A stretch of DNA of 64,000 bases, from positions 3,172,594 through 3,236,593 of the forward strand of contig NZ_BPIM01000001.1 in NCBI RefSeq assembly GCF_026004115.1, given 5' to 3'. Shown piece after piece: positions 17,569 through 52,319 of this stretch. The notes below the pieces were generated by a model. The model worked only from the letters and a program-made list of their open reading frames with translations, made no database searches and was not told the DNA's origin. The stretch comes from Meiothermus sp. (GTDB lineage: Bacteria; Deinococcota; Deinococci; Deinococcales; Thermaceae). A program made the translations under genes and the position numbers. Each line of letters opens with the position of its first letter. Positions within the stretch are counted from its first letter, which is position 1.

Positions 17569-17597
17569 CACAAATCGGGACTCGAGGTGAAATCGCT

Positions 17598-20139: not shown

Positions 20140-20185
20140 TCAAGTGTATGCTTACCCCTCATTTAGCGCAACCATGATTAACGGG

Positions 20186-30671: not shown

Positions 30672-30733
30672 GCCAGCCACGAAGGTTTTTATCCTGGAGC
30701 CAGTCCAGATAGGCCCAAGGGAATAGTGGCGAT

Positions 30734-35207: not shown

Positions 35208-35954
35208 ATGCGAAGTTTTGTGCTCGAGGTTTGGGGGGAGCTGGCTTGTTTTACAAGGCCCGAGTTCAAGGTGGAGCGCTTCAGCTACCCCCTCATCACC
35301 CCCAGCGCAGCCCGGGGCATTTTCGACGCCATCTACCTGGACTTTGACCCCCAGAGCCAAAAGTCCCTCATGTACTGGCAGGTGGAGCGCATCGAGGTGC
35401 TCAGGCCGATACGCTACATCAGCCTGATGCGCAACGAGGTCAAGGAAAAGGCCAGCCCACGCAACATCCAGGCCTGGATGAAAGACCCCAGCCGCCTCGA
35501 GCCCCTCTATGCCGACGCCACCAGTAACGAAACCGGCCAGGACACCAAAGGCCGCACCCAGCGCCAGACCATGGCCCTCAAGGACGTGCGCTACCGCCTG
35601 AGCGCCCACGCGGTGCTCTACCGGGAAGACCCCGCCCTGCGCCAGAAAATTGAGCACAGCTTTGAGCGGCGGGCCCGTGCCGGGCAGTGCATCTACCAAC
35701 CCTACCTGGGCTGCCGCGAGTTTAGCGGCTACTTCCGGCTGGTCGAGCCCGGCGAGGAAGCCCCGCCTGTGGACTACCACGAAAAGATCGGCTGGATGCT
35801 CTACGACGTCTTCGACCTCTCGCGACCGGGGGCCCCGCTGCGTACCGACAAAGGGGAAAAGCCCCGCATCAGCCTGTTCGAGGCCGAGGTGGTGGCGGGG
35901 GTGCTGCTGGTGCCCCCCTATGAAAGCGAGCGGGTCAAGAAGGGGGTGGGTTAA
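35208..35954 (+). CDS. cas5: Cas5c (Cas5d), type I-C pre-crRNA endonuclease subunit
   Basis: [43 protein letters not shown] is the typical Cas5d N-terminus. Confidence 0.9.
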
Positions 35955-37798
35955 TGCTCGCGCAGTTGGTGGAGTACGCCCGGCAAAAAGGCCTGGGCAC
36001 CGAACCCGGCTTTACCACCAAGGAGATTCGCTGGCTGGTGGGGGTGAGTCCGGCTGGAGAGTTCACCGAGCTGATCGACCTGAACCAAACCAAACCTGCC
36101 CCCGACCTCTCCCAGCCCGACATGATGAGCCTGCCCGGCTACTTGCGGGCGCAGGGTCACACCGTCGAGCAGGCCGCCCACTTCCTGGCCGACACCTGTG
36201 CGGTGGTGTTTGGGCTGGCCGAGCGGGACGCCGCAGGGAATATCAAAAAGCCCGAGGAACATGCCAAAAACCTCCTGAAGCACGCTGCCTTCCGGCTGCT
36301 CATCCAGTTGGCGGCCAGAAACGTACCGCTCCTCGAGCCCATCGCCAAGGCGCTCTCCGACCCCCAGCAGGTGCAGGCTTTCTTGCAGAAGCTGGAGGCC
36401 CAAGCCCAGAAAAGGGGGCCAGAAAGGCTCAAATCCACCGACAAAATCTCTTTTTTCGTGAACGGCCGGTGCGTGCTGGACTGCCCCGACTGGCACGACT
36501 GGTGGCGGCAGTTTAGGGCCCAGGCCTTCCCCAAGTCGGGCGAAGAGGGCCAGATGCCCTCGTTCGCCAGCGGCGAGCTGGTCACTCCGGCTTCCACCCA
36601 CCTCAAGGTCACCCGGCTGGGCGGGAGCGCCTTTGGCCACGCTTTGGTCACCTACGACAAGGAGGCCTTCGAGTCCTATGGCCTCTCCCAAGGGGAGAAC
36701 GCGGCGGTAGAGGAGGAGGCCGCTACCGCCTACCGGGCCGGGCTGGACGCGCTGTTGGAGAAAGCCCAAACCCTGGGCGAGATGAAGGTGGTGGTCTGGT
36801 ACGACCGCGAGATTCCCGAGGAAGACGACTTCTTCCGCGACCTCTTCGCCCCCAGCAGCGGCGAGGCCGAGGAGCTACAGGCCCTCGAGCGCGCCCACAA
36901 GGTGCTACAAGCCCTCAAGACCGGCCAGGCCCCGCCCAGCCTGCGCCAGGCCCGCTTTTTCGCCACCGCCATGAGCCCAGCCTCGGGCCGGGTGATGGTG
37001 CGCGACTGGCAAATCGGCAGGCTGGAAGACTTCGTGGAGGCCGTAACAACCTGGTTTGAGCAACTGGCCATCGTGCGCAAGGGCGGCGACCGCCCGGCCA
37101 GCCTGCCGGGGTTGAACCGGCTCTTCCTGAGCCTGCAGCGGCCCAAATCCCCCGACCAAAAGCTGGACGACTACCTCAAGCCCGTCAAAACCTTGCAACT
37201 CCCCCTCTGGCGAGCCGCCCTGAACCCCAGCCTGCCCATCCCTTACGCCGCCATCGCCAAAATTATGGAGACCCACACCGCCGAGGTGATGACCGGGGCC
37301 TTTACCGAGGCCCTGAACACCCAGAAACCCGACGCCGCCGCCCTGGGGCGCATCTACGCCCGCATGGGGCTTTTGAAGGCCTACCACATCCGCAAAGGAG
37401 GGAAGATGAGTACCGCCCTAGACCCCCACCACCCCAGCCCGGCCTACCACTGTGGCCGCTTGATGTGCCTCCTGGCCCAGATCCAGGAGGCCGCCAGCGA
37501 GTCCGAGATCAACGCCGGGGTGGTGCAGCGCTACTACGGCGCTGCCAGCAGCACGCCGGCCCTGGTGCTGGGCCGCCTCACGCGGCTTTCGCAGCACCAC
37601 CTGAGCAAAATGGCCAAGGACGCCCCCGGCCTGGCCTACTGGTTCAACACCCAACTGGCCCAGGTCTGGAGCGCCCTGGGGCCCAGCCTCCCGCGCACCC
37701 TGAGCCTGGAAGAGCAAAGCCTTTTTGCCCTGGGCTACTACCATCAACTGGCCCAAAGCCGCAAGGGCAAGCAGGAGGGCGAGACTCAATCCGCATAA
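35954..37798 (+). CDS. cas8c: Cas8c (Csd1), type I-C large subunit
   Basis: Assigned by position between cas5c and cas7c, its 614 aa size and a Csd1-like N-terminus. The ATG overlaps the cas5 stop (TAATG). Confidence 0.85.
37406..37798 (+). CDS. cas11: Predicted internally translated small subunit Cas11c (130 aa, in frame within the cas8c 3' end)
   Basis: An in-frame ATG at 37406 is preceded by a strong AAAGGAGGG Shine-Dalgarno. Type I-C systems are known to make Cas11 by internal initiation in cas8c. Confidence 0.5.
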
Positions 37799-37828
37799 AT
37801 CCAAGCCAAACCCTGAAAGGAGATGTTT

Positions 37829-38818
37829 ATGTCCCAGCCCATCCAGAACCGCTACGAGTTTTTGCTCTTCTTCGACGTGCAAGACGGCAACCCCAACGGC
37901 GACCCCGACTCGGGCAACGCCCCCCGCGTAGACCCCGAGGACGGCCACGGCCTGGTGAGCGACGTGGCCCTCAAGCGGCGCATCCGCAACTACGCCCAGG
38001 CCGCCGGAGCCCCCATCTTTGTGCAGCACGGCACCAACCTCAACCGCTCCATCTTCGAGGCCCACGAGAAAACCGAGGGTGGGTTCACCGCAACCAAAAC
38101 CAAGGACAAGGTAGAAGCGGCCCGCCGCTGGATGTGCGGGCAGTTCTTCGACGTTCGCACCTTTGGGGCGGTGATGAGCACCGGGGCCAACGCCGGGCAG
38201 GTGCGGGGGCCGGTGCAGATCACTTTTGCCCGCAGCCTCGACCCCATCTTTCCCGCCGAGTTCAGCATCACCCGCGGCGCGGTGGCCGAGGACGTCAAGA
38301 ACGCCAAAACCCTGGAAGACTACCTGCGCTGGGAGAAAGAACAACCCGAGGACAGGCTGCGCACCATGGGCCGCAAGAGCCAGGTGGCCTACGGCTTATA
38401 CCTGGCCAAGGGCTTCATCAGCGCCCACCTAGCCCAGGGCACCGGCTTCAGCCAGGCCGATCTTAAGCTTTTGGTGGAAGCCCTTTTGAACATGTACGAC
38501 CACGACCGCAGCGCCTCCAAAGGCATGATGGCCACCCGCCGGCTTTACCTTTTCCAGCACGTGGGCAACGGCGACCCCCACAACGCCGAGCAAAACAAGC
38601 GCCAGGCCATGCTGGGCTGCGCCCCTGCCCACCGCCTGCTCGATCTGGGCCAGGTGGTCTCGGTGGGGCGACTCGACGAAAGCAAACCCCCCCGCCGCTT
38701 CGCCGACTACGAGGTAAAAGCCGACCCCCAGAAGCTACCCAAAGGGGTGCGGATGTTGGAACTGGACGCCTGGGACGAGGCCCGCTTTGACCGCTGGATG
38801 GGAGGGCAGGATGCCTAG
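37829..38818 (+). CDS. cas7: Cas7c (Csd2), type I-C backbone subunit
   Basis: [49 protein letters not shown] is the Csd2 hallmark. The start is at MSQPIQ, after AGGAG. Confidence 0.9.
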
Positions 38819-40103
38819 AACCATCCCCTTTTCGCCCCCCGAACTCAAGACACCTGCGTTGGAGACCTGGACGCTCAGGCTCAAAACCATCACGCCAATG
38901 TTCGGCGGCAGCGCTACCCCGCGCGAGGTAGACCCGGAAAACCCTGTTCGGGCGGCCAGTGTGCGCGGGCACCTGCGCTTTTGGTGGCGGGCTGTGGCGG
39001 GGGGACGGTATGCCAGTGCGAAAGAGTTGTTCGAGGCGGAGGAGGAAATTTGGGGCAGTGATGCCATCCCAGGAAAAGTTTCCATAAAGGTATTGGAGGC
39101 GAGGGCATCAGAGCCCAAGCCTTGCTGTACTTATGAGCATCCGCGAAGAGATGGGGGAACTGAGCTAAAAACCTACCCTTATTTTGGGGAGTACCCCGGA
39201 TATGCTCTTTTCCCGTTTCAGGGCAAGGCCCGGAGAGACAAACAAAGTGGCGTAATAACTATTACTGAGCAGCCATCTAAGTGTCTCGAAGAAGTAAGCT
39301 TTACCCTATGCCTTTCTTTTCCTAACTACATCAAGCCCCAAGTAGAACCGGCCGTCGCCTTTTGGCTAAAGCTTGGCGGAATAGGGGCGCGTACAAGGAG
39401 AGGCTGCGGAAGCTTAGAGATTGTTGAAGATTCGCTTCCTCAAAACACGAAGCTCGAATCTTTATTGGGTCGCAAAGCAAATAGTCTTCTCACAACGGTT
39501 CCAATCGTTTGTTTTGTGGGCGAAGAGAAAGAATCGCCCATCCAAGCATGGAAAGAGGCAGTTGAGGTTTACAAGGAGTTCCGGCAAGGAAAAGATTACG
39601 CCAGAGACCCAGGCTCTAATCCCAAATCTGCAAAACTCGGACGTTCAAGGTATCCAGAACCCGATACTATTCGCGAAATGTTTTCGCAAGAGAGTTGGCG
39701 GCACGGAGTAAAACATCCAGTTAGAGGCTTTCCTCGAGCCGATCTAGGCCTCCCGATAGTTTTTCACTTTCAGGAAGAAGGCCCTAAAGATGAAAACTTC
39801 TACCTCGAGTCCAACTATTCACGCGGTTCACGGTTTGCCTCGCCGGTCATTACGAAAGCGATGAAAAAGAATAATGGCTATGCTCCGGCTATTATTCTGC
39901 TCAACGCACCTCATGTGTGGGAGGCTGGAAACTTTACGTTGAGGTTGCGTTCGGATGTGCATGTAATAAAAGAGAACTTTGTTAATCTTGATCGGCACAG
40001 TCGAGAGCACATACCACCGCTGAGAATGTTTGGCTCCAAACCGATTCGCGAAGCATTGTGGGATTTCATAAAGTCCAAGGGCTACCAGGAGGTGCGCCTA
40101 TGA
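38811..40103 (+). CDS. cmr1: Cmr1 (type III-B RAMP)
   Basis: ITPMFGGSA...[16 protein letters not shown] is the Cmr1 signature. The ATG overlaps the cas7 stop by 8 nt. Confidence 0.8.
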
Positions 40104-41584
40104 GCCACCTGCTCTCCATCTCCCTGGGCCCAGTGCAAGACTTCATTGCCGCCGCGCGCCGCACCACCGACCTGTACGCAGGTTCGCAGATTTTGCAGGA
40201 ACTGAGCAAGCACGCCGCGCAGCACTTGGCTTCGCAGGGGGCTACGCTCATCTTTCCAGCCAACCAGAACGCCGACGGGGCCAACAAGATTCTGGCCGAG
40301 GTAAAGGACGACCCTAAGCAGCTTGCCGCGAAGACCAAAAAAGCCGTTCAGGACAGGCTATTGAGTCTCTGGGACGAGACCAAAGGCAAACTTCCCGCCG
40401 AGCAACAGAACCTGATTGACCAAGCAAGGGCCCAAGAGCAGCTTGGGTGTTTTCTCGAGTTCTACGCCGCCTGGGTGCCGCTGCCCAACAAGGAGGCCTA
40501 CAGGGAGGCCCGGCTTCAGGTGGAGCGCCTCTTGGCCGGGCGCAAGGCTTTGCGGGACTTCGCCCCCACCCAGCAGAGCGACGACGGCGTGCCCAAGTCC
40601 CCCCTCGACCCCTCCTGGGCGGCGGTGATCGATCCCCGACAGTGGGGGGATGTCAACATCCGCCTGGCCGTTGGCTCCTACCGCCCACTGCGCATCAAGC
40701 CCACCGAGCACCTCGACGCCATCTCGCTCCTCAAGCGCTGTTACGGGGTGCTGAACTCGGACAAAGTGGTGGACACCCGCACCATGGCCCGGCGCTCCTG
40801 GAGGCCGGAAGCAAAGCCCGACGAGCGCTACGGCGAGGAAGACGACCATATCCCAGAGCCCCAGCCCTACCTGGCCATCCTGGTGGCCGACGGCGACCGC
40901 ATGGGCGAGCTGATCGCGCGGCAGGACGACCCCAATGCCCACCGTGGGCTATCAAAAACCCTGGACGACTTCGCCAAAGAAGCCCGCAAAATTGTGCCCA
41001 AGCACAGGGGCTTTATGGTCTATTCGGGCGGGGACGATGTGCTGGCCCTCCTGCCAGTGAATCGGGCCATCGCCTGCGCCAAAGACCTCTCGGAGGAGTT
41101 TCGCCACCGGGTCAAGGGCACCCTTTCGGCAGGAATCGCCATTGTGCACTACCGCGAGCCGCTTTCCATTTCCCTGCAACATGCGCGATATGCGGAGAAA
41201 GCCGCTAAGAACGGTGGACGGAATGCCCTGGCGGTGGCCCTGCACACCCGTGGTGGCTCGCCGGTCACGGTGGTGCAGCCCTGGAACGAGCTGTCCTGGG
41301 ACGAGCTGCTCGAGGCCTACCAAAACCGCCAGATTACCCGTGGCCTGGCCCATGAACTGCGCGACCTGGTGCAGGAGTGGCAGGACGACATGCGGGCCGA
41401 TTACCTCCATAAGGAAGCCCAGCGGGTTCTGTCTCGCAAAGAGGCCCGCAATCTAAAAATCCCCGCACCCGCCAGCGACACCCCCACCTACCGCAAAGCC
41501 CTGCTGCGCTTTGTGGATCAGCTCATCATCGCCCGCTTTTTGAGTGGCCTTCAGGAGGAAGAGCATGCCGGAAAGAGTGCTTGA
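40100..41584 (+). CDS. cas10: Cas10/Cmr2, short form without an HD domain, cyclase GGDD motif intact
   Basis: It starts directly at SLGPVQDFIAAARRTTDLYAGSQIL. It has VADGDRMG and YSGGDDVLALLP and is 494 aa. There is an ATGA overlap with cmr1. Confidence 0.9.
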   Translation: MSHLLSISLGPVQDFIAAARRTTDLYAGSQILQELSKHAAQHLASQGATLIFPANQNADGANKILAEVKDDPKQLAAKTKKAVQDRLLSLWDETKGKLPAEQQNLIDQARAQEQLGCFLEFYAAWVPLPNKEAYREARLQVERLLAGRKALRDFAPTQQSDDGVPKSPLDPSWAAVIDPRQWGDVNIRLAVGSYRPLRIKPTEHLDAISLLKRCYGVLNSDKVVDTRTMARRSWRPEAKPDERYGEEDDHIPEPQPYLAILVADGDRMGELIARQDDPNAHRGLSKTLDDFAKEARKIVPKHRGFMVYSGGDDVLALLPVNRAIACAKDLSEEFRHRVKGTLSAGIAIVHYREPLSISLQHARYAEKAAKNGGRNALAVALHTRGGSPVTVVQPWNELSWDELLEAYQNRQITRGLAHELRDLVQEWQDDMRADYLHKEAQRVLSRKEARNLKIPAPASDTPTYRKALLRFVDQLIIARFLSGLQEEEHAGKSA

Positions 41585-42698
41585 AATCCACGCCCTGAGC
41601 CCCCTGCTTTTCCGCGACGGCAGGCCCTTTAGCGCCGCCGACGGTACCGAGACCGCCGCCCGGAGCCTGAGTCTGCCCTTGCCCAGCACCGTGGCGGGCT
41701 TCGTGCGGACGCAGGTGGGGCTGGCCGAGGGCAAGGGGTTTAGCCAGGAGCACCTGCAAAATCTGCACGGCCTTCAGGTGTGCGGGCCGCTGCTGGCTCG
41801 AGACGACGAGGTGTTGCTACCCGCCCCCCGCGATGCGGTGGTGTACCGGGATGCTGAAGGCAATGCCCAGGTCATGAAGCTGACCCCCTTTAGCCCCCCC
41901 GCGGGCCCAGGCTGTGACCTGCCGGACGGCCTTTTGCCCTTGCAGATCACCCAGGACGTGAAGCCCGAATCGGGCTACAACTTCTGGACGGCCCGCAACG
42001 TGGAGCGCTGGCTATTGGACGAGAGCCTGGTGCCCGAAAATATCTCTGGCCTCCCCACCGAGACCCGCGTGCACGTGGCCATGGACCCCGTCAAGGGCAA
42101 AGCCAGGGAAGGCCAGCTATACAGCGTGGCCTACCGGCCTTTGGAGATGGGCGAGAACCCCCAAACCTACCAGCCCGCCAGCCTGCGGGTGCGGCTCTCG
42201 CTGTCCAACGGGCAGACCCCGGCCCCCATCGGCCACCTGGGGGGCGAACGCCGTCCGGTGGCGGTGGAGGTGAAGGAAAGCCTTTCCGAGCACTGGTTCG
42301 ATTGCCCGGAGGCTATCAAAAAGCGCTTCGCCGAGATGGGAAAAGGGGCTCGAGTGCGGCTGGTGCTGGCCACGCCAGCCCTGTTCGAACACGGCTGGAA
42401 ACCTGGCTGGATCGAGAAATCGGGCAGTGGCGAGCTTCATCTGCCTCGAGGTCTGTGCCGGGTGAAACTCAAGCTGGTGGCCGCCGCAGTGGGGCGGCGC
42501 GAGCCGGTGAGCGGCTGGAGCCTGCGGGAAAACCGGCCCAAGCGGGTGCGTTGGATGGCGCCCGCAGGCAGTGTGTATTTCTTCGAGGTGGTGGAAGGCC
42601 AACCAGCCGACCTGCTGGAAAGCTGGCTCAGGCCCATTAGCGACCTCAAGCAAGATCGCAAGGACGGCTTTGGACTGGCCCTTTGGGGAGTGTGGTGA
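41565..42698 (+). CDS. cmr3: Cmr3
   Basis: ALSPLLFRDGRPF N-terminal motif. The start follows AGGAGGAAGAGC and overlaps the cas10 3' end by 20 nt. Confidence 0.85.
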   Translation: MPERVLEIHALSPLLFRDGRPFSAADGTETAARSLSLPLPSTVAGFVRTQVGLAEGKGFSQEHLQNLHGLQVCGPLLARDDEVLLPAPRDAVVYRDAEGNAQVMKLTPFSPPAGPGCDLPDGLLPLQITQDVKPESGYNFWTARNVERWLLDESLVPENISGLPTETRVHVAMDPVKGKAREGQLYSVAYRPLEMGENPQTYQPASLRVRLSLSNGQTPAPIGHLGGERRPVAVEVKESLSEHWFDCPEAIKKRFAEMGKGARVRLVLATPALFEHGWKPGWIEKSGSGELHLPRGLCRVKLKLVAAAVGRREPVSGWSLRENRPKRVRWMAPAGSVYFFEVVEGQPADLLESWLRPISDLKQDRKDGFGLALWGVW

Positions 42699-42700
42699 AC

Positions 42701-43489
42701 ATGCACGCAAAGATGATTTTTTGGCAGGCCCTTACGCCGGTGCACCCCGGCACCGGGCAGGACAGCAGCAGCGTGATTGACCTTCCCGTAGCCCGCGAAG
42801 CGGCCACGGGTTTTCCGGTGATACCGGCCAGCAGCCTTAAGGGGGTGCTGCGCGATGGGCGCGATGATGAGCAAAGCAATAGACTTTTCGGCTCCTTAGA
42901 AAATGCAGCCGAACTGACCCTGACCGATGCCCGCCTCTTGTTGCTGCCGGTGCGCTCGTATGCGGGCACCTTTGCTTTCCTGACCTGCCCGCTGGTGCTC
43001 GAGCGGCTCAAACGCGACCAGAAGGCCTTGGGGCTTCCTGAGCTGAAAGCTCCGATACCGAACCCGGGACAGACCGAAGCTCTCGTACCCAAGAACACTC
43101 AAATTGTGCATGCTAACCAGGTAATCCTCGAGGACATAGACCTGAGTGCCACTGTCGGAGGCGCAGAAGCGCTGGCGCAGGAACTGGGGCAACTGGTCTT
43201 TGGCGCGGAGTCGAGCTACTTTGTGGGGCGCTTTGCATTGGTATCCAACGAAGTGTTCGATTACTTTTGCGAGATGGGCCTCGAGGTCATCGCCCGGGTA
43301 CGCCTGGAAAACGAGAGCAAAACCGTAGCCAACGGCGCTTTGTGGTACGAGGAAGCCATCCCTGCCGAGACGGTGTTCTCGAGCTTCGCCATCGGCAATG
43401 GGTTCGAGGAACTGAACCGGCCCTACATCCAGATAGGCGGCCAGGCCAGTGTGGGCCGGGGGCTGTTGCGGCGGTTGGGGGGTGAGTAG
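42701..43489 (+). CDS. cmr4: Cmr4 (RNA-cleaving backbone RAMP)
   Basis: ALTPVHPGTGQDSSSVIDLPVAREAATGFPVIPASSLKGVLRD is the Cmr4 pattern. Confidence 0.9.
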   Translation: MHAKMIFWQALTPVHPGTGQDSSSVIDLPVAREAATGFPVIPASSLKGVLRDGRDDEQSNRLFGSLENAAELTLTDARLLLLPVRSYAGTFAFLTCPLVLERLKRDQKALGLPELKAPIPNPGQTEALVPKNTQIVHANQVILEDIDLSATVGGAEALAQELGQLVFGAESSYFVGRFALVSNEVFDYFCEMGLEVIARVRLENESKTVANGALWYEEAIPAETVFSSFAIGNGFEELNRPYIQIGGQASVGRGLLRRLGGE

Positions 43490-43491
43490 CC

Positions 43492-43870
43492 ATGTCCCAA
43501 ACACGCAGCCAAAAGGACATGCAGCAGGCGCTGGAGCTGGTGAGCAGCCTCGAGCGGGCCGACCCCGAGGTCAAGCGCATCTACGGCGGCCTCTGCCACA
43601 GCTTCCCGGTGATGGTCCTGCAGAGCGGGCTGTGCCAGGCCGTGGCCTTCAGCGCTGATAAAGCCAGCGGCGACGGTAAGCGGGCCCAGGCGCACCAGCA
43701 TTTGCTTGAGCACCTCGGCGAGATGCTGGGCGTAAGGGGCAAGCTGCTGGAGGCGTTGCAGTCGGCACCCACGCCCCTGTACATGCACCACACCCGGCGG
43801 GTGCTGGAAGCGTGGGTGTACTTCAAGCGCTTTGCGGTAAGCGTACTCGAGGTGCAAGCGGGGGAAGACC

Positions 43871-43881
<11 letters not shown>
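43492..43881 (+). CDS. cmr5: Cmr5 (type III-B small subunit)
   Basis: 129 aa helical protein with the motif IYGGLCHSFPVMVLQSGLCQAVAF, positioned between cmr4 and cmr6. Confidence 0.85.
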
Positions 43882-44841
<960 letters not shown>

Positions 44842-44845
<4 letters not shown>

Positions 44846-45900
44846 GCACTGTCGTCCTCACCACCGTCGGCACCAGCCTGCTCTTCAACGCCCGCCGCGA
44901 GGGCCTGGTAGAAGACCACCAGATTCTGGCTTACCTGAAGCAAGACCCCAAAAAAGCCAGCGCCGAGACCAACTCGCTTTCGCGCATTTTGCAAAAAGGC
45001 GATGAGGTGGTGCTGCTGCACAGCGACACCTTCGAGGGCGCTAACGCCGCAAACTTGCTGAAGCTTTTCTACGAGGAGCAGGGGGTGCCTTGTGGTCGGG
45101 TGCGCATACCCGGCCTGGCCTACGAGGCCCAGGGCTTTGTGGACTTTGGCCTAAAGAACTTTGTGCGCACCCTGGCCGGCGAGATTCGTAAGGCTGCCAA
45201 GGGGCAGAAAGACGTCATCATCAACGCCACCGGGGGCTTCAAGGCCGAGATTTCCTATGCCACCGTGCTGGGGCTGGTGTTCAAGGTTCCGGTCTGCTAT
45301 ATTCACGAGCAGTTCAGGGAAATTGCCATCCTGCCGCCCACGCCCATCGGTTGGGATAGTAGCTTGTTTGTTTTGTATGGCGACTTTTTCGACTGGCTGA
45401 GCGAAGGCGAGGGGGGCGTGCGCCCCAAATCGGAGGTGCAACCCAGGGCAGCTCTGTTGCCCGAAGAAGCACAGGTTTTGCTGGAGGAGTTCGAGCTCGA
45501 CGGAAAGCCTTACGTGGGGCTATCCCCTTTGGGCGAGGCCTACTTCGAGGCCTTTCGGGGTGAACTCGAGCAGGCCCAGACCATCCCCATCTACCTCGCG
45601 CCCAAGGCCAGGCGCACCTGGGAGGGCCTCGAGCCCGCCACCAAAGAGCGCTACCGCAAGCTGCTGGAGCGCCTGCGCCTGCCCAACCGCGCTACCAGCA
45701 GCGAACTCAAAAGCGGCGGAGGCGACGCTCTGGGGTTTCCCAAAGGGCACACGGACGAGCGGGTTTTTTACGCCGAGAAGGACGGTGCGCTGTATGTGTT
45801 CGCCCTCACCCACCACGGCCCGGAGTACGAGCGGATGTGCCAGGAGGGCTTCTACTGGCGTGATTATTCTCCGCAGGATTTCACCCTGCTCGACGAGTGA
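44842..45900 (+). CDS. CARF domain protein with a C-terminal RelE/ParE-like domain (cOA-responsive effector candidate)
   Basis: N-terminal CARF motifs LTTVGTSLL and INATGGFKAE. By eye, the C-terminal roughly 95 aa (IYLAPKARRTWEGLEPATKERYRKLLERL..ERVFYAEKDGALYVFALTHHGPEYERM) align position by position with E. coli RelE. There is an ATGA overlap with cmr6. Confidence 0.7.
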
Positions 45901-45927: not shown

Positions 45928-46584
45928 ATGGACGAGACGGACGACCTATTCCCCCCAATAGACCCGCCCAGCCCCGCCGAGCGGGAGCCCCTACCCCTGA
46001 GCGCCCTGGCCCAGTACACCTACTGCCCCCGCCGGGCCGCGCTGATACTGCTGGAGGGCGAGTGGGAGGACAACGAGTACACCCTGCGCGGAACCCGCGC
46101 CCACGAGAATGTGGACATTCCCGAAGGGCTCTTGCGCGAGGGGGTCTGGGTCGAGCGGGCCTTGCCCATCTGGTCGGAGCGGCTGGGGCTTTCAGGCCGG
46201 GCCGATGTGGTGGAGTTTGTGAACGGGGTGCCCTACCCGGTGGAGTACAAGGTGGGCCAGCGGTGGCCCCGCGAACTGGCCCGCAAAGCTGCCGAGGTAC
46301 AGCTCTGCGCTCAGGCCTTGTGTCTGGAGGAGATGTTCGGCCAGAGCGTACCCGCCGGGGCTTTGTTTAGCAAGGCCAGCCAGCGCCGCCGGGAAGTCCT
46401 GTTTACCCCGGAGTTGCGGGCCGCTACCCTGGCCACCCTCAGCGCCCTGCGCAAGCTTTTGCGTCAGGAACGCTTGCCCCCGCCCGCAGCAGACGAACGC
46501 TGCCGCCACTGCTCCCTTCATGCGGTGTGCATGCCCGAGGTGCCCCAGGCGTTGGTGCATTTCCTCAGCCACAACCAGCCATGA
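45928..46584 (+). CDS. cas4: Cas4 (RecB-like nuclease with Fe-S cluster)
   Basis: YTYCPRR at the N-terminal Cys and C-terminal CRHCSLHAVC. Confidence 0.9.
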   Translation: MDETDDLFPPIDPPSPAEREPLPLSALAQYTYCPRRAALILLEGEWEDNEYTLRGTRAHENVDIPEGLLREGVWVERALPIWSERLGLSGRADVVEFVNGVPYPVEYKVGQRWPRELARKAAEVQLCAQALCLEEMFGQSVPAGALFSKASQRRREVLFTPELRAATLATLSALRKLLRQERLPPPAADERCRHCSLHAVCMPEVPQALVHFLSHNQP

Positions 46585-47600
46585 CTACCGAGCTGCTCAA
46601 TACCCTCTACATTCAGACCCAAGGCGTATACCTGCGCCTCGAGAGCGACACCCTGCGCATCCAGCATGAGGACGTAACCCTGCGCCATGTCCCGCTGCAC
46701 CACCTGGGGGGCTTGGCGCTTTTTGGCAACGTGCTGGTTTCGCCCTTTTTGCTCCACCGCTGCGCCGAGGAGGGCCTCGAGGTCGCCTGGTTTAGCGAGT
46801 CGGGCCGCTTTCAGGGGCGGCTGGCAGGGCCGGTCTCGGGGAATGTGCTGCTGCGGCGGGCTCAGTACCGGGCCCTGGATAACCCTTCGACCTGCTTGTA
46901 CCTGGCCGCGCGCTTTGTGGAGGGCAAGCTTAAGAACGCTCGCCTGGTGCTACAGCGAGCCGTGCGCGAGCGGGGCGAAACCGAGGCTCTGAATCAAGCA
47001 CTTTTTGAACACGAAGCGGCCCTGCGCCAGCTTCCCCAAGCCCGAACGGTGGACGAGGTGCGGGGCCTCGAGGGACAGGCGGCCAGCGCCTATTTCGCGG
47101 CTTTTGGCGATCTGTTGCTCTCGGGCGAGTTCCGCTTTGAAGGGCGCAACAAACGCCCCCCGCGCGACCCCGTAAATGCCCTGCTGGGCTTTGTGTATGC
47201 CCTGCTCACCACCCAGTGCACCGCCGCCCTGGAAGGGGTAGGGCTCGACCCCCAGGTGGGCTTTCTGCATGCCCTGCGACCCGGTCGCAACGCCTTGGCC
47301 CTGGACTTAATCGAGGAGTTTAGAGCCTGGTGGGCCGACCGGCTGGTGCTTTCGATGATCAACCGCAAGCAGCTCTCTCCCGAGCACTTCGAGGAGCGCC
47401 CCGGCGGTGCGGTTTTGCTGAGTGAGGAAGGGCGAAAGGCGGTTATCGTGGCCTTTCAGGGCCGCAGGCAGGAAACCCTACAGCACCCTTTGTTCAAAGA
47501 GCCCGTACCCATCGGGTTGCTGCCCCACATCCAGGCCCGCCTGCTGGCCCGCTACCTGCGGGGCGACCTGCCCGAGTACCCCCCGTTTGTAGGAAGGTAG
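46581..47600 (+). CDS. cas1: Cas1 integrase
   Basis: TLYIQTQGVYLRLESDTL...NALLGFVYALL...GFLHALRPGRNALALDLIEEFR. ATGA overlap with cas4. Confidence 0.95.
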   Translation: MTTELLNTLYIQTQGVYLRLESDTLRIQHEDVTLRHVPLHHLGGLALFGNVLVSPFLLHRCAEEGLEVAWFSESGRFQGRLAGPVSGNVLLRRAQYRALDNPSTCLYLAARFVEGKLKNARLVLQRAVRERGETEALNQALFEHEAALRQLPQARTVDEVRGLEGQAASAYFAAFGDLLLSGEFRFEGRNKRPPRDPVNALLGFVYALLTTQCTAALEGVGLDPQVGFLHALRPGRNALALDLIEEFRAWWADRLVLSMINRKQLSPEHFEERPGGAVLLSEEGRKAVIVAFQGRRQETLQHPLFKEPVPIGLLPHIQARLLARYLRGDLPEYPPFVGR

Positions 47601-47602: not shown

Positions 47603-47902
47603 ATGGAGCGGCTGGATATTCTGGTTACCTACGATGTCAACGTAACCTCCGCAGACGGCCAGACCCGCTTGGCCCGGGTCGCCAAGGTCTGCAAGAACTT
47701 TGGTCAGCGGGTGCAGATGTCGGTGTTTGAGTGCCGCGTGACGCGGGCTCAGCTCGAGGACATGGAGGCCAAACTACTCAAAATCATCGAGCCCGACAAA
47801 GACAGCCTGCGCATCTACACCCTGCCCGGAGGCCGGGAGAAGTGCTTGCGGGTACACGGCCAGGACAAGTACACCGACTTCGACGACCCCTTGGTGGTCT
47901 AG
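47603..47902 (+). CDS. cas2: Cas2
   Basis: 99 aa with VTYDV...RVAKVCKNFGQRVQMSVFEC. Confidence 0.9.
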   Translation: MERLDILVTYDVNVTSADGQTRLARVAKVCKNFGQRVQMSVFECRVTRAQLEDMEAKLLKIIEPDKDSLRIYTLPGGREKCLRVHGQDKYTDFDDPLVV

Positions 47903-48103
47903 GCCACCCTGGCACTTGCTTTGCGCGAACCCCAAGCAAGTGCCAAAACCCGGGGGGGTTCGCGCAAGCCGAGAAATCGGCTAGGGGACATTGAAAACCT
48001 GTTTTCCCTTCACCTTGCCCCACCCTGCGCCGGAACCCTTTTCAGGGGGGTTCGCGCAAACGGCCTCTTGAGCTTTGTCCAGCACGCACGCTAGAATGAG
48101 GCC
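47903..48103 (+). promoter_or_regulatory. CRISPR leader (201 bp) with a candidate promoter TTGAGC-N18-TAGAAT (48068-48097) and repeated motifs
   Basis: It lies between the cas2 stop and the first repeat. Degenerate repeats are at the far end of the array, so this end is the leader. The -10 element ends 6 nt before repeat 1. Confidence 0.6.
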
Positions 48104-51100
48104 GTTGCACTCGGGCGAAAGCTCGAGTGAGGATTGAAACCCTGATCCGCGATGCGCTGCGCTTCCGCCGAGTCGTTGCACTCGGGCGAAAGCTCGAGTG
48201 AGGATTGAAACCTGGCAGGCCTTGGAGCAATGCTTGGAGTCCCTGGTTGCACTCGGGCGAAAGCTCGAGTGAGGATTGAAACCTGGCCGACCAGCCGCGC
48301 GATCATCCGCTCGGCGTGTTGCACTCGGGCGAAAGCTCGAGTGAGGATTGAAACTGGTAGGTCGAAGGGTATATCTTTACGCGGATGGGTTGCACTCGGG
48401 CGAAAGCTCGAGTGAGGATTGAAACACAGAAGTGCCACAAATAGCGTCCAGGACAACAAGTTGCACTCGGGCGAAAGCTCGAGTGAGGATTGAAACGTGC
48501 CGTGTGCTCAGTAAGCATTTCCTCTAAAGCGTTGCACTCGGGCGAAAGCTCGAGTGAGGATTGAAACACATAAACGTACAACCCACGGCCCACTCGAACC
48601 ACAAGTTGCACTCGGGCGAAAGCTCGAGTGAGGATTGAAACCTCGAGGACGATAGCCCAGAGGGGCTTCGCACCAACGGTTGCACTCGGGCGAAAGCTCG
48701 AGTGAGGATTGAAACAGCTTATCGATGGCCTCCTGGGGGCTGCGCCCGCGGTTGCACTCGGGCGAAAGCTCGAGTGAGGATTGAAACGGCCGTTATCTGT
48801 CGGGCTATGACGACTGGATAGCGTTGCACTCGGGCGAAAGCTCGAGTGAGGATTGAAACACCTGCATCCCTATGTTGAACAAAAATTCTTTAAGTGTTGC
48901 ACTCGGGCGAAAGCTCGAGTGAGGATTGAAACGCAAGCCTCACAGGTGGTATAGCGTGCGTTGTAGCAGTTGCACTCGGGCGAAAGCTCGAGTGAGGATT
49001 GAAACTCGTAGCCCAGGAACAGCCGCCGGTCGTACTCAAGTTGCACTCGGGCGAAAGCTCGAGTGAGGATTGAAACCCGCACCAGCCAATCGTCATCCGA
49101 TACTAGCCGCCAGTTGCACTCGGGCGAAAGCTCGAGTGAGGATTGAAACTTGAACTGAAACAATATTGTTTTCTCTGCCCAAAGTTGCACTCGGGCGAAA
49201 GCTCGAGTGAGGATTGAAACTGCTAACGCGCAGACATTCACGATCTGCGCAAACGTTGCACTCGGGCGAAAGCTCGAGTGAGGATTGAAACAGCGCCGCT
49301 AAGGGAGAATCGGCAGCCATGTTCATGTTGCACTCGGGCGAAAGCTCGAGTGAGGATTGAAACTTCTTTAGGGCGAATCATACCATTAGAATATTTTGTT
49401 GCACTCGGGCGAAAGCTCGAGTGAGGATTGAAACAGAGATGGGCTCCACGGGAATGACTACCTTATTATCGTTGCACTCGGGCGAAAGCTCGAGTGAGGA
49501 TTGAAACCTTCGAGGGGTTCTACAGGTATTACTACCTTGTTATGTTGCACTCGGGCGAAAGCTCGAGTGAGGATTGAAACCCCTGCTGGATGGCGTCGTT
49601 GAGCAACGCCACCACCGGTTGCACTCGGGCGAAAGCTCGAGTGAGGATTGAAACGCGAGAGATGCACTAATGCTCGAGTCATACTCACCGTTGCACTCGG
49701 GCGAAAGCTCGAGTGAGGATTGAAACTCCTCACCGGGGAGGACATCCCCCAGGGCTGGGCGCGTTGCACTCGGGCGAAAGCTCGAGTGAGGATTGAAACT
49801 ATAGCTGTTCCAGCTTCTTCAGTACTTCCAGATCCGTTGCACTCGGGCGAAAGCTCGAGTGAGGATTGAAACGAGTGCGAGGGGCGGCTCATAGAGGTAA
49901 AGGCCGCGTTGCACTCGGGCGAAAGCTCGAGTGAGGATTGAAACTATGCGTTTAGCGTTTAGGCGTTTAGGCGCGTATACGTTGCACTCGGGCGAAAGCT
50001 CGAGTGAGGATTGAAACGCGAGAGATGCACTAATGCTCGAGTCATACTCACCGTTGCACTCGGGCGAAAGCTCGAGTGAGGATTGAAACCATCAGGAATG
50101 AAATAAACTGTATAAACATCATCTGTTGCACTCGGGCGAAAGCTCGAGTGAGGATTGAAACAGGAGAACGCCCTTGTAGAGGCTTTCCTTTTCCTCGTTG
50201 CACTCGGGCGAAAGCTCGAGTGAGGATTGAAACTAGCCATTAGGATTGACAACGATTTGGCTTGGAGGATGTTGCACTCGGGCGAAAGCTCGAGTGAGGA
50301 TTGAAACAGCCAAAAAATATCTTTCGAATTCAATTAACTGTACGTTGCACTCGGGCGAAAGCTCGAGTGAGGATTGAAACGTGCATAAAATGCACAATGT
50401 CTTCAGCCAGAGATAGTTGCACTCGGGCGAAAGCTCGAGTGAGGATTGAAACTTCTAATTTATTTCCAGTAGCAATAAAATGAAGGTTGCACTCGGGCGA
50501 AAGCTCGAGTGAGGATTGAAACTCGACGACGGCGAGAAATCCCGCGGGCCCCATCCCGTTGCACTCGGGCGAAAGCTCGAGTGAGGATTGAAACCCGAAC
50601 GAGAAAAAAGCTGTTGGGAGAAATCTCGCGTTGCACTCGGGCGAAAGCTCGAGTGAGGATTGAAACGCTAAACAACGACACCACATTATTCAGAAGGGCG
50701 TGTTGCACTCGGGCGAAAGCTCGAGTGAGGATTGAAACAGGCATCCCATACAGCCGTACGTCCGTAGGCGACCCGTTGCACTCGGGCGAAAGCTCGAGTG
50801 AGGATTGAAACCGACTCCCGCGACGAGGAGCGGGTGCGCGCCCTCGTTGCACTCGGGCGAAAGCTCGAGTGAGGATTGAAACCCCGAACGCCTCGCTAAA
50901 ATACGGCAGCCCGGCTAGTTGCACTCGGGCGAAAGCTCGAGTGAGGATTGAAACATCGCGGGCAGGTCTGTATCGTACCCCCAGCCCAGTTGCACTCGGG
51001 CGAAAGCTCGAGTGAGGATTGAAACTCGCCGTCGCAACCATCTGGGCTGGGCCTTTGAGTTGCACTCGGGCGAAAGCTCGAGTGAGGATTGAAACGGCGG

Positions 51101-52319
51101 TCAAAGGGCGGGCAGGCGGCAACATCAAGCGTTGCACTCGGGCGAAAGCTCGAGTGAGGATTGAAACGCCAGGCGAGTCAAGATTCTCTGGGAGTCCGTA
51201 GCATGTTGCACTCGGGCGAAAGCTCGAGTGAGGATTGAAACGCACTCCCCACATTCCAGGCCCCAGTAGGCCACGTTGCACTCGGGCGAAAGCTCGAGTG
51301 AGGATTGAAACGTTGCGGGCTTCGCCGTTGCCTGGGGGATCCAACCGTTGCACTCGGGCGAAAGCTCGAGTGAGGATTGAAACGAACAGTTCCGACCTGA
51401 AGTGTAGCAGGTCTTCCTGTTGCACTCGGGCGAAAGCTCGAGTGAGGATTGAAACTTTGACCTGGCTTACCGCTACCTCAATCCTGGCTCGTTGCACTCG
51501 GGCGAAAGCTCGAGTGAGGATTGAAACTCAAAGGCCCCGCGGAACTTGAATGCCCCGTGGGCGTTGCACTCGGGCGAAAGCTCGAGTGAGGATTGAAACC
51601 TTCAAATCGACTAGGAAAACGTAGGAAAACGGAGGGTTGCACTCGGGCGAAAGCTCGAGTGAGGATTGAAACAAGCACCACCAGCGAAGACATCCTGATT
51701 GCCCGTCTTGTTGCACTCGGGCGAAAGCTCGAGTGAGGATTGAAACAGACCACACCCCCGCTGGCGGGGTGCGGTATTCCACGTTGCACTCGGGCGAAAG
51801 CTCGAGTGAGGATTGAAACAATTCAATCTCTATTTGGCTATTTTCCACCGGAAGTTGCACTCGGGCGAAAGCTCGAGTGAGGATTGAAACTTACGCGGAT
51901 GCGGGCAATGTTTTGCCCGTTCCGGCGTTGCACTCGGGCGAAAGCTCGAGTGAGGATTGAAACCGATGGTCGCGAGGGCTTGCGGGCCCGTGTGGAGGTT
52001 GCACTCGGGCGAAAGCTCGAGTGAGGATTGAAACTGGAGCGAGGGCGGCAGCACGTCCTGGGTCGAAGGTTGCACTCGGGCGAAAGCTCGTGTGAGGATT
52101 GAAACCTACGCGCCTTGTTGCTAGGAAGTTTACGCCGTCGTTGCACTCGGGCGAAAGCTCGAGTGAGGATTGAAACATTCCTGAACCTATGGGACAGGCC
52201 CGCCTCGAGTGGTTGCACTCGGGCGAAAGTTCGAGTGAGGATTGAAACAGAAAATCATCCAGAATTTCCTGCACGGCTTTTTGTTGCACTCGGGCGAAAG
52301 CTCGAGTGCCGAACAATAG
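48104..52319 (+). CRISPR. CRISPR array: 59 repeats of 37 bp (GTTGCACTCGGGCGAAAGCTCGAGTGAGGATTGAAAC) and 58 spacers of 33-37 bp
   Basis: Every unit was hand-indexed. Repeat 56 carries A>T at 52091 and repeat 58 carries C>T at 52230. The last repeat (52283-) matches only its first 26 nt. The repeat ends in ATTGAAAC on the same strand as the cas genes. Confidence 0.98.

Follow-up and report, generated by a model that had tools for sequence, protein, structure and literature searches.

A Cmr Module Inside a Type I-C CRISPR Operon of Meiothermus sp. and Cas5c as a Possible Common Source of crRNAs

Introduction

When PAM or seed mutations let phages escape, guides shared between DNA-targeting type I and RNA-sensing type III CRISPR systems are believed to provide a second line of immunity. 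Sharing based on Cas6 has been described for Marinomonas (I-F/III-B), Sulfolobus (I-A/III-B) and Pyrococcus (I-A/I-G/III-B), as well as for I-B/III-B complex loci. As in the locus reported here, a DNA-targeting and an RNA-targeting effector go with a single array and a single adaptation module, and the type III part has no cas1, cas2 or cas6 of its own. In all documented cases, however, the common nuclease is a Cas6 that produces handles of 8 nt and does not remain bound to them, whereas the sole processing nuclease encoded in cis in the present locus is Cas5c, associated with an 11-nt handle and itself the handle-binding subunit of Cascade. No proven guide sharing without Cas6 and an 8-nt handle was found in the literature searched.

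Arrays shared between I-C and type III modules were noted in three genomes by Vink et al. 2021 (PMC8482600), under the term 'multi-effector compatible arrays'. The authors stated that array sharing needs experimental verification, and the paper gives no account of how a Cas5c-cut crRNA could serve a type III complex. The literature searched contained neither an experimental demonstration that Cas5c-made guides serve both I-C and III-B nor an answer to how Cmr obtains its guides in such loci.

A Cmr-type system lacking Cas6, as in the present locus, is the III-Bv system (CRISPR3) of Synechocystis PCC 6803, in which Cmr loads crRNAs with 13/14-nt handles made by RNase E, the cut falling in an AU-rich stretch downstream of the repeat stem. 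In contrast to the present locus, processing there depends on the housekeeping RNase E (with RNase J) instead of a Cas protein from a type I system encoded alongside, and both the repeat family and the Cmr clade are different.

The closest analogue for cleavage is the type I-C system of Thermus thermophilus HB27, which likewise has Cas5c, Cas8c, Cas7c and Cas3. Its 37-nt Repeat-2, GTTGCACCGGCCCGAAAGGGCCGGTGAGGATTGAAAC, is cut by Cas5c in vitro and requires Cas5c in vivo, and it is left uncut by both Cas6-1 and Cas6-2. Unlike the operon described below, the HB27 I-C operon has no embedded Cmr module; the HB27 Cmr belongs to another clade, has the gene order cmr2-3-1-4-5-6 and uses separate arrays with the tag AUUGCGAC made by Cas6-2, without cross-use of the I-C repeat.

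The same composite gene order is annotated in RefSeq on plasmid pMESIL01 of Meiothermus (Allomeiothermus) silvanus DSM 9946, with a Cas5c 91.5% identical to the one studied here, a WYL-fused Cas3 of 1084 aa and the same leader motif. That locus differs in being plasmid-borne rather than chromosomal, in its IS insertions and additional TIGR02221 gene, and in having lost its array. No functional study of it was found in the literature searched.

Organization of the Locus

In the window analyzed, a stretch of 64 kb of Meiothermus sp. DNA, a type I-C system is interrupted after cas7c and before cas4 by a full set of type III-B (Cmr) genes, together with the gene of a probable CARF effector (Table 1). 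The order is cas3-cas5c-cas8c-cas7c-cmr1..6-CARF-cas4-cas1-cas2-array, and all 14 cas genes are intact and lie on one strand. With one adaptation module (cas4-cas1c-cas2), one array and two effector modules, the gene map is that of a complex locus.

Table 1. Coordinates of the operon, leader and array within the window.
Feature	Position	Strand	Remarks
cas3 (HD + helicase)	31905..35159	+	N-terminal wHTH-WYL-WCX regulator module of ~340 aa
cas5c, predicted pre-crRNA endonuclease	35208..35954	+	NCBIfam match; Tyr (AIY) and invariant Lys (RQK) present
cas8c/csd1	35954..37798	+	TIGR01863, 265 bits
cas7c/csd2	37823..38818	+	TIGR02589, 317 bits
cmr1	38787..40103	+	ORF coordinates; true start may be downstream
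cmr2/cas10	40058..41584	+	likely start MSHLL (~40097); GGDD intact; no HD domain
cmr3, Cas5-family subunit binding the crRNA 5' tag	41544..42698	+	profile match
cmr4, backbone and RNA-cleaving subunit	42683..43489	+	VIDLPVARE motif with Asp
cmr5	43492..43881	+	NCBIfam match
cmr6	43871..44845	+	NCBIfam match
CARF protein, Cas_APE2256 family	44782..45900	+	best PDB matches 8phb/8phj
cas4	45928..46584	+	NCBIfam match
cas1c	46527..47600	+	TIGR03640, 475 bits
cas2	47603..47902	+	NCBIfam match
Leader	47903..48103	+	promoter-like site; motif GGGGGGTTCGCGCAA twice
First CRISPR repeat, 37 nt	48104..48140	+	GTTGCACTCGGGCGAAAGCTCGAGTGAGGATTGAAAC; 4-nt 5' flank, 9-bp stem, GAAA loop, 11-nt tail AGGATTGAAAC
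CRISPR array	48104..52319	+	59 repeats, 58 spacers of 33-37 nt

Cas5c, Cas8c, Cas7c, Cas1c, Cas4 and Cas2 matched NCBIfam models above the curated cut-offs, and the six Cmr proteins exceeded the cut-offs of equivalog models (for Cmr1, a hypothetical-equivalog domain model). Cas3 passed the cut-off of the HD model, and the score of its helicase core fell slightly short of the one required (99.3 against 102.45 bits). The likely start of cmr3 is near 41565, since its homologues are about 377 aa long.

The cyclase motif GGDD of Cas10 lies in YSGGDDVLALLP, and the VIDLPVARE motif of Cmr4 includes the catalytic Asp; absence of the HD domain from Cas10 is common in III-B. The CARF protein is a probable cOA-activated effector. 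The cmr genes are under purifying selection, with dN/dS values of 0.13-0.35 (0.53 in one cmr6 comparison) at dS up to about 1-2; values for the I-C effector and adaptation genes were 0.04-0.25.

The catalytic triad of Cas5c consists of Tyr, Lys and His, of which Lys alone is invariant in the family, and the His position tolerates Phe, Leu or Tyr. In the protein encoded here, Tyr and Lys align at the catalytic positions, the His position is occupied by Ile, and a His follows three residues later. Many Cas5c proteins have the general-base His, and Phe and Tyr are found at this position in those of N. lactamica and T. thermophilus.

CRISPR Array and Leader

The array is the only one in the locus, and copies of the repeat are absent from the rest of the 64-kb window. 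Of its repeats, 56 of 59 are identical, all three variants lie at the trailer end, and the terminal copy (52283-52319) keeps the stem with a degenerate 11-nt tail. The position of the variants and the degenerate tail of the last copy indicate that the array is transcribed on the + strand. The promoter-like site in the leader is TTGAGC-18-TAGAAT (48068-48097). The leader motif is located at 47953 and 48045 and is also present 3' of cas2 in M. silvanus.

Repeat Structure and Predicted Cleavage Site

The predicted RNA fold of the repeat, ....(((((((((....)))))))))..........., has an energy of -16.2 kcal/mol, compared with a mean of -6.7 for shuffled sequences (z = -4.37); none of 200 shuffles folded equally well or better. 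The fold therefore comprises a 9-bp stem (positions 5-13 with 18-26, including one G-U pair) and a GAAA loop, followed by exactly 11 nt, as the sequence-only reading of this DNA had described it.

Covariation was examined in 12 distinct repeats of related loci. Bases were able to pair in 97% of cells, and changes on both sides of the stem were found in 8 of the 9 pairs, values reached by 0 of 500 shuffles. When the stem partners were slid by 1-3 columns, pairing fell to 31-44%. The structure of the repeat is under selection. The last 10 nt (G28-C37) were invariant across the 12 repeats, and the tail fits the 3' handle pattern (U/A)GGAUUGAAA(C/U) of published I-C repeats.

Compared with HB27 Repeat-2, the repeat has the same 5' GTTGCAC, GAAA loop and 3' GTGAGGATTGAAAC, and the 9-bp stem differs by compensatory changes. 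The cut is predicted between G26 and A27 (48129|48130 in the first repeat); the site was taken from the Cas5c literature, namely a paper on S. mutans Cas5c, with T. thermophilus Cas5c acting on this homologous repeat as the cleavage analogue. The earlier proposal that the repeat is a Cas5c-type substrate was supported by the hairpin and its 11-nt tail, by the presence of cas5c, cas8c, cas7c and cas3 with no cas6, and by the cleavage of the HB27 homologue by Cas5c and not by Cas6.

The repeat is a normal Thermaceae type I-C repeat. Its length of 37 nt had been pointed out as greater than the usual 32 nt of I-C, which is true, but it is no anomaly, as the I-C repeats of Thermaceae are normally 37 nt long. 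The resemblance of the last 8 nt to a type III tag was also noted earlier, and it holds: the spacer-adjacent ATTGAAAC is the tag on Cas6-linked arrays of most sister Cmr loci. It is no peculiarity of this locus, however, since characterized type I-C repeats in the literature end in ...GGATTGAAAC. A III-B system is recognized by an 8-nt 5' tag made by Cas6; here the tag is present, but the window has no cas6 and the hairpin points to a cut at -11 rather than at -8.

Search for Cas6

No match to a Cas6 family was obtained in Pfam or NCBIfam among the sizeable ORFs of the whole 64-kb window. Likewise, when every ORF of 70 aa or more in the six reading frames was compared with three Cas6 HMMs and with T. 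thermophilus Cas6-1, there was no match. The claim that no cas6-like ORF exists between 31.9 and 52.3 kb was borne out by these searches, which covered the entire window.

Two unannotated ORFs, 16308-17048(-) and 30300-30995(-), were considered as divergent Cas6 candidates and rejected, with no match in Pfam (E <= 1), NCBIfam (E <= 0.1) or the Cas6 HMMs. An extra gene located 3' of cmr6 in 31 related loci was considered as a hidden processing nuclease and was found to encode a TIGR02221/DxTHG CARF protein (Csx1-type), which the window does not have.

Related Cmr Loci

Among 80 loci with related Cmr3 proteins, I-C genes lie beside cmr in 20 and cas6 is present in cis in 17, and no locus has both. 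The 20 composite loci come from 20 different species-representative genomes, to which M. silvanus is added. The repeats of Cas6-linked arrays form weak stems, and in many of them the stem stops 8 nt short of the repeat 3' end, whereas in all I-C-linked arrays the hairpins end about 11 nt from it.

The Deinococcota members form one Cmr3 clade, with Cmr3 proteins about 41-90% identical to that of the window; the nearest relative in the genome collection is Meiothermus hypogaeus (90%). An I-C operon adjoins cmr in every member of this clade with enough flanking sequence. A second, independent association with I-C was found in Chthonomonas (L048). The Cmr clade is combined with two divergent I-C lineages, the Cas5c proteins being 35% identical in one case and 60-90% in the other. 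Four stand-alone Cmr modules (L019, L031, L045 and L052) are directly flanked by hairpin arrays with 11-nt tails. Close relatives have a Csx1-type (TIGR02221) gene between cmr6 and the CARF gene, which is missing from the window.

In the plasmid collection, cas6 outside the composite operon was seen for at least two of the relatives that have this operon, or for their species. Plasmid pMESIL01 of M. silvanus has a separate I-B locus with cas6, whose arrays end in GAG(G)ATTGAAAC, and cas6 is also present on a plasmid of M. taiwanensis WR-220. Given these two cases, it is not claimed that genomes with the composite operon lack Cas6.

Source of Guides for the Cmr Complex

With one array and no Cas6 in the operon, Cas5c probably makes guides for both machines, and we put the probability that it supplies crRNAs to I-C Cascade and to Cmr at about 55%. 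The sequence-only reading had set three options side by side, namely Cas5c feeding both complexes, a distant cas6 and a starved Cmr module. These are not equally likely; supply by Cas5c is favored because I-C genes and cas6 in cis are mutually exclusive (20 and 17 of 80 loci, with 0 having both) and because the Deinococcota Cmr clade lies beside an I-C operon. The loading of crRNAs with 13/14-nt handles by Synechocystis III-Bv Cmr serves as a precedent.

In the mechanism envisaged, the array would be transcribed from the leader promoter and every repeat would be cut by Cas5c between G26 and A27, where the hairpin has its 3' base, a step that is well supported. In the resulting crRNA the spacer would follow an 11-nt 5' handle, AGGAUUGAAAC, and precede a 3' hairpin of 26 nt. 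With Cas5c, Cas8c and Cas7c this crRNA would form I-C Cascade, which would recruit Cas3. Cmr may take the same Cas5c-made crRNAs, Cmr3 and Cas10 binding the spacer-adjacent 8 nt, AUUGAAAC, the tag which most sister Cmr modules obtain through Cas6. The three extra 5' nucleotides (AGG), which match in position the cut-side triplet read by B. halodurans Cas5c, would either protrude from the Cmr-bound crRNA or be trimmed. Like the 3' ends of crRNAs in other type III systems, the hairpin would be trimmed off. Judging by the motifs, binding of a target RNA by Cmr would then cause Cas10 (GGDD, no HD) to make cyclic oligoadenylate, switching on the CARF effector.

Cas5c remains on the 5' handle in I-C Cascade, so the transfer of the handle from Cas5c to Cmr3 needs explaining. 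The Ile at the general-base His position of Cas5c counts against supply of both complexes by this enzyme. So does the observation that the HB27 III-A/B complexes do not use crRNAs with the I-C repeat; this is no clean test of an 11-nt handle, however, because the cognate III-A/B tag is AUUGCGAC.

A broader proposal, held tentatively and at slightly under even odds, is that the Deinococcota Cmr clade, and independently some Armatimonadota, gave up Cas6, came to depend on Cas5c and load 11-nt handles in which the 3-nt Cas5c triplet precedes the 8-nt type III tag. If so, Cas5c would mature crRNAs for two systems and would have to release or share the handle that it normally keeps in Cascade.

The main rival to supply by Cas5c is that Cmr is fed by Cas6-made crRNAs of another array elsewhere in the genome, for example of type I-B. 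The adjacent array would then serve I-C Cascade only, and cmr would sit in the I-C operon merely for co-regulation or shared adaptation. This part of the earlier distant-cas6 option is live, because relatives such as M. silvanus have a separate I-B locus with cas6 and ATTGAAAC ends. I-B repeats likewise end in this tag, and the I-B and I-C repeats of T. thermophilus have their last 12 nt in common. On pMESIL01, the composite operon without an array of its own is accompanied by an I-B locus with a cas6 59% identical to T. thermophilus Cas6-1 and arrays ending in GAGATTGAAAC and GAGGATTGAAAC. Moreover, several CRISPR systems are frequent in Thermaceae, and an orphan cas6 lies on the T. thermophilus chromosome.

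Nevertheless, we regard supply from another array as rather unlikely. None of the 20 loci with I-C-embedded Cmr has cas6 in cis, compared with 17 other Cmr loci that do, and the four stand-alone Cmr modules flanked by 11-nt-tail hairpin arrays also speak against it. That cmr has long stayed between cas7c and cas4 throughout a deep clade is most simply read as use of the adjacent array, and the 64-kb window contains neither cas6 nor a second array.

A sub-variant of supply by Cas5c is that Cas5c or a housekeeping RNase cuts first and a host nuclease then takes about 3 nt off the 5' end, giving Cmr an 8-nt tag. The maturation of Cmr crRNAs by RNase E and RNase J in Synechocystis III-Bv gives a precedent, but nothing in the sequence points to such trimming, and Cas5c products bear a 5'-OH. 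Exonucleases that depend on a 5'-monophosphate, RNase J among them, act poorly on RNA with a 5'-OH. Trimming of this kind appears improbable.

The other part of the distant-cas6 option, that a Cas6 acting in trans cuts the hairpin repeat itself 8 nt from its 3' end (G29/A30; A30 is 48133 in the first repeat), fared poorly. The last 8 nt do form the canonical tag, and there are well-documented cases of Cas6 acting in trans in Sulfolobus and Pyrococcus and, with Cas6-2, in T. thermophilus. However, both T. thermophilus Cas6 enzymes are inactive on the homologous hairpin repeat, although its last 12 nt are also those of the I-B repeat, which both enzymes cut. Cas6-linked sister loci with a recognizable stem have a weak one reaching to -8, whereas all I-C-linked repeats have a stable stem to about -11 that covaries to stay there. 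Cutting of this repeat in trans is thus very improbable.

Least credible is a crRNA-starved or otherwise non-functional Cmr module, a decaying insertion: the absence of cas6 in cis and of the Csx1-type gene of close relatives would fit it, but it is disfavored because neither the CARF gene nor any of the six cmr genes is disrupted, the catalytic motifs are in place, dN/dS is 0.13-0.35, and the arrangement is kept in the composite loci of 20 species-representative genomes and in M. silvanus.

[quoted passage not shown] If 11-nt Cas5c guides work in Cmr, type III tag recognition would tolerate a 5' extension in a canonical Cmr, beyond the cyanobacterial III-Bv, and Cas5c, normally a handle-bound Cascade subunit, could give up RNA to a complex that competes with Cascade. 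In thermophiles, the sensing of RNA by type III systems could then be programmed with compact I-C arrays. The locus is well suited to testing, as there are cultivable relatives (Meiothermus, Thermus, Deinococcus), carriers among them being M. hypogaeus DSM 23238, M. granaticius, Calidithermus roseus and Thermus altitudinis, and T. thermophilus offers genetics, Cas5c and Cas6 mutants and a near-identical repeat.

Spacer Content

Contigs from public sequencing runs that contain the repeat or cmr genes belong to related strains with other spacers, and their ends are repeat/spacer branch points, not RNA ends. Within the array, one spacer is present twice (49655-49689 and 50018-50052). The arrays of all composite loci together comprise roughly 400 spacers.

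When the array was compared by BLAST with 50,697 phage records, two weak matches to Meiothermus phages and one good protospacer were obtained, too few for a test of PAM or strand bias. The good match pairs spacer 49727-49762 with Thermus phage Riverbug at one mismatch. The 5' flank of this protospacer is CCC, not the I-C PAM TTC, and the sense of the spacer is that of the phage gene.

Organization of the composite operon and the CRISPR array

The window carries a composite operon of types I-C and III-B, which is conserved and lacks a cis cas6. The 14 genes located 5' of the array all lie on the + strand, tightly packed or overlapping, and their order shows a complete Cmr module and an effector inserted in the I-C operon, between the Cascade and adaptation genes. 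The locus is chromosomal, and its flanking genes are of housekeeping type (Lon, ribonucleotide reductase, EF-G, MiaA, LysRS, GreA and AcrB). Composite operons of this kind are already visible in annotated genomes, and no functional study of them was found in the searched literature.

Features of the composite locus (window coordinates)
Feature	Position	Strand	Remark
cas3	31905-35159	+	
cas5c	35208-35954	+	
cas8c	35954-37798	+	
cas7c	37823-38818	+	
cmr1	38787-40103	+	
cas10/cmr2	40058-41584	+	short, about 495 aa; GGDD present, HD domain absent
cmr3	41544-42698	+	
cmr4	42683-43489	+	catalytic Asp motif present
cmr5	43492-43881	+	
cmr6	43871-44845	+	
CARF protein	44782-45900	+	Cas_APE2256 family
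cas4	45928-46584	+	
cas1c	46527-47600	+	
cas2	47603-47902	+	
First CRISPR repeat	48104-48140	+	GTTGCACTCGGGCGAAAGCTCGAGTGAGGATTGAAAC
CRISPR array	48104-52319	+	59 repeats of 37 nt, 58 spacers of 33-37 nt

Fifty-six of the 59 repeats are identical, with variants only at 52069, 52212 and 52283, and no further copies were found in the window outside the array. The terminal repeat (52283) keeps the hairpin but has a decayed 11-nt tail, CCGAACAATAG. The first repeat is preceded, at a distance of 7 nt, by a promoter-like site (TTGAGC-18-TAGAAT, 48068-48097). Both observations place array transcription on the + strand, and the repeat orientation adopted in the sequence-only reading was therefore right.

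No Cas6 family of Pfam or NCBIfam matched the sizeable ORFs of the 64-kb window, including the unannotated ORFs, for which the cut-offs were E <= 1 (Pfam) and E <= 0.1 (NCBIfam). Three Cas6 HMMs, built from cas6 genes adjoining related cmr modules, and T. thermophilus Cas6-1 likewise gave no match among six-frame ORFs >= 70 aa of the window. The lack of a cas6-like ORF, originally stated for 31.9-52.3 kb, thus extends to the whole window.

Repeat hairpin and its probable nuclease

The repeat RNA folds as ....(((((((((....)))))))))........... with -16.2 kcal/mol, compared to a mean of -6.7 for dinucleotide shuffles (z = -4.37), none of 200 of which matched the native fold; the 9-bp stem with one G-U pair, the GAAA loop and the 11-nt tail described previously were thereby confirmed. 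In an ungapped alignment of 12 distinct 37-nt repeats from related loci, 97% of cells in stem columns were standard pairs, and two-sided changes occurred in 8/9 stem pairs, the closing pair C5-G26 being invariant. None of 500 shuffles attained the observed stem covariation values, and shifting the 3' partners by 1-3 columns reduced pairing to 31-44%. The ten 3'-terminal nt (GGATTGAAAC) were invariant, and position 27, the first nt 3' of the stem, was A in ten repeats, U in one and G in one. These results point to a genuine hairpin that selection maintains.

The I-C repeat of T. thermophilus HB27, GTTGCACCGGCCCGAAAGGGCCGGTGAGGATTGAAAC, is also 37 nt long (PMC10989782, PMC12102369), so this length is normal in the clade: the earlier remark that the repeat is longer than typical holds for its length, which is nevertheless not unusual. 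The two repeats have the 5' flank, the GAAA loop and the 3' 14 nt in common, and their stems differ by compensated changes. Deletion of cas5c in HB27 abolished I-C interference and increased pre-crRNA, and purified HB27 Cas5c cleaves the HB27 repeat. In the Cas5c of the window, the catalytic Tyr and Lys align, with Ile at the His position; across the family the Lys is invariant and the Tyr and His positions are variable (PMC8524198).

With a hairpin ending 11 nt from the 3' end and cleavage of a related repeat by HB27 Cas5c, the proposed Cas5c-type substrate was well supported, and the array very probably yields 11-nt-handle crRNAs for the I-C Cascade. B. halodurans Cas5c recognises the three nt immediately 3' of the cut (PMC8524198). 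The last 8 nt, previously likened to a type III tag, are exactly the tag received by most sister Cmr modules.

Distribution of related Cmr loci

Cmr3 homologues of greatest similarity were found in Thermaceae. A Cmr3-alignment scan, taking one genome per species, yielded 80 loci with <= 10 kb on each side, which were annotated by means of a repeat finder, the Cas6 HMMs and comparison with the proteins of the window. I-C genes adjoined cmr in 20 loci and cas6 in 17, both in none, and neither in 43, many of them on truncated contigs. The I-C-linked loci comprised Meiothermus hypogaeus, M. granaticius, M. luteus, M. cerbereus, M. taiwanensis and M. rufus, Calidithermus roseus, Thermus altitudinis, T. 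caliditerrae, Deinococcus piscis, a Deinococcus MAG, several Deinococcales and Thermaceae MAGs, and one Chthonomonas. In the majority of them cmr lies between cas7c and cas4, as in the window; T. caliditerrae has the order I-C operon, array, cmr, and in Chthonomonas cas4 precedes cmr1.

In the Cmr3 tree, all Deinococcota sequences formed one clade, I-C-linked in every member with enough flanking sequence, with Cas6-linked Actinobacteria as the sister group. The Chthonomonas linkage was separate, inside an Armatimonadota clade. The Deinococcota Cmr clade pairs with two divergent I-C lineages: Cas5c identity to that of the window was 60-90% in Meiothermus-type loci, which carry two clade-specific insertions, and about 35% in Deinococcus-type loci.

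Repeat geometry tracks the nuclease. Arrays adjoining cas6 had weak structure, several with a 4-bp stem ending exactly 8 nt from the 3' end, whereas those adjoining I-C genes had a core hairpin of 8-9 bp whose end lay about 11 nt from it. Four Cmr modules without cis I-C (L019, L031, L045, L052) were directly flanked by 11-nt-tail hairpin arrays, L052 also having cas6. In L052, a Chthonomonadales MAG, one Cmr module has cas1-cas2-cas6 and a Cas6-type array on one side and a 62-repeat I-C-like array with the 11-nt-tail hairpin on the other (3512-4450 and 16111-20554).

Selection on the cmr genes

In comparisons with four Meiothermus relatives, cmr and CARF genes had dN/dS of 0.13-0.35, with one cmr6 comparison at 0.53 and dS of up to about 1-2; for the adaptation genes and the I-C effector genes the ratio was 0.04-0.25. 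Stop codons and frameshifts were absent.

Divergence from M. hypogaeus was mosaic across 38787-44845, with dS of 0.05 in cmr1 and 1.3 in cmr5. The window Cmr1 is 96% identical to that of M. hypogaeus and only about 38% to other Meiothermus, which suggests an exchange of cmr gene cassettes by recombination.

Source of the Cmr guides

The sequence-only reading is confirmed as an observation; as an interpretation it is supported in part and has become more specific. We infer, at a probability of roughly 0.55, that Cmr uses the same Cas5c-made crRNAs, the variant with 3-nt trimming included. This is suggested by the placement of cmr inside or next to the I-C operon throughout a deep clade, the mutual exclusion of I-C genes and cas6 in cis, the contrast between -8 and -11 geometry, the 11-nt-tail arrays at the borders of stand-alone Cmr modules, the purifying selection that acts on cmr, and a handle made of the 3-nt Cas5c determinant plus the exact 8-nt tag of most sister modules. 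Cmr3 would compete for, or be handed, the Cas5c-bound 5' handle. Cas5c normally remains on this handle as a Cascade subunit, and such retention is a mechanistic difficulty for the sharing model.

Synechocystis III-Bv, in which Cmr functions without Cas6 on 13/14-nt handles made by RNase E (PMC12464536), is a precedent for a Cas6-less Cmr with a longer handle. In HB27, crRNAs with the I-C repeat are not cross-used by the type III complexes, which have their own tag, AUUGCGAC; the HB27 Cmr differs from that of the window in clade and gene order. A genome survey reported three genomes in which I-C and type III share repeats and acquisition machinery, sharing that the survey itself terms unverified (PMC8482600). 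Complex loci served by a single adaptation module form a recognised class, I-C/III-B not being among the discussed combinations (PMC7145637). [quoted passage not shown] The guide source is directly testable in cultivable thermophiles.

The main rival, Cas6-made guides from another array, is less probable, none of the 80 loci having both cis I-C and cis cas6, but it draws on Meiothermus (Allomeiothermus) silvanus DSM 9946 and its plasmid pMESIL01. There the same composite operon is annotated (Cas5c 91.5% identical), its array 3' of cas2 lost and the leader motif left, followed by an IS. About 127 kb away on this plasmid lies a type I-B locus with cas6 (L085, 314-345 kb) and two arrays with repeats ending GAGATTGAAAC and GAGGATTGAAAC, so one cell can also contain crRNAs that are made by Cas6 and bear the same 8-nt tag. 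Another Cas6 is encoded by an M. taiwanensis plasmid; the composite operon thus does not generally go with a Cas6-free genome.

Cleavage of this hairpin repeat by a Cas6 in trans is very unlikely, since purified HB27 Cas6-1 and Cas6-2 left the homologous I-C repeat uncut and cleaved the I-B repeat, whose 3' 12 nt are identical. The crRNA-starved, dead Cmr module considered in the sequence-only reading is very unlikely in view of purifying selection and retention across a deep clade, where a useless module is not expected.

Additional features of the locus

The N-terminal ~340 aa of Cas3 (31905-32930) form a winged-helix/WYL/WCX regulator module (Pfam WCX 8e-12, WYL 5e-5). The same 1084-aa WYL-fused Cas3 is annotated in M. 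silvanus, and a gene of its own, adjoining cas3, encodes the WYL protein in the I-B loci of T. thermophilus and M. silvanus.

The closest solved structures to the CARF protein are 8phb/8phj (E 1e-15). Its C-terminal ~100 aa (ERVFYAEKDGALYVFALTHHG), matched by nothing in Pfam, appear RelE-like by eye, which suggests a Cami1-type CARF-RelE effector. An extra TIGR02221/DxTHG (Csx1-type) CARF gene lies between cmr6 and the APE2256 gene in M. hypogaeus (L001 13380-14501), M. granaticius, C. roseus, M. luteus and M. silvanus (L081 29574-30647), and occurs in many Armatimonadota loci; it is absent from the window (junction 44845/44782) and several other Meiothermus loci.

A 36-nt unit (CTTCCAAGGGGCTTACGCCCTCCGCTACGCGGATAA) in 3.1 head-to-tail copies of 96% identity (27463-27576), between an unannotated ORF (25932-27356) and an amidase gene (27626-29104), was rejected as a CRISPR array because it has no spacers. 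The leader (47903-48103) carries the motif GGGGGGTTCGCGCAA twice (47953 and 48045), along with three inverted repeats, all perfect and 12-14 nt long; the motif also occurs 3' of cas2 in M. silvanus (L081 35075-35182), where an IS/integrase replaces the array. An identical 35-nt spacer, GCGAGAGATGCACTAATGCTCGAGTCATACTCACC, is present at 49655-49689 and 50018-50052, at a distance of five array units. Spacer 49727-49762 corresponds to the hypothetical gene Riverbug_3 of Thermus phage Riverbug (L083 1502-1537) except for a single mismatch in position 3 of the spacer; the protospacer has the 5' flank CCC, not the I-C PAM TTC, and the spacer sense is that of the phage gene.
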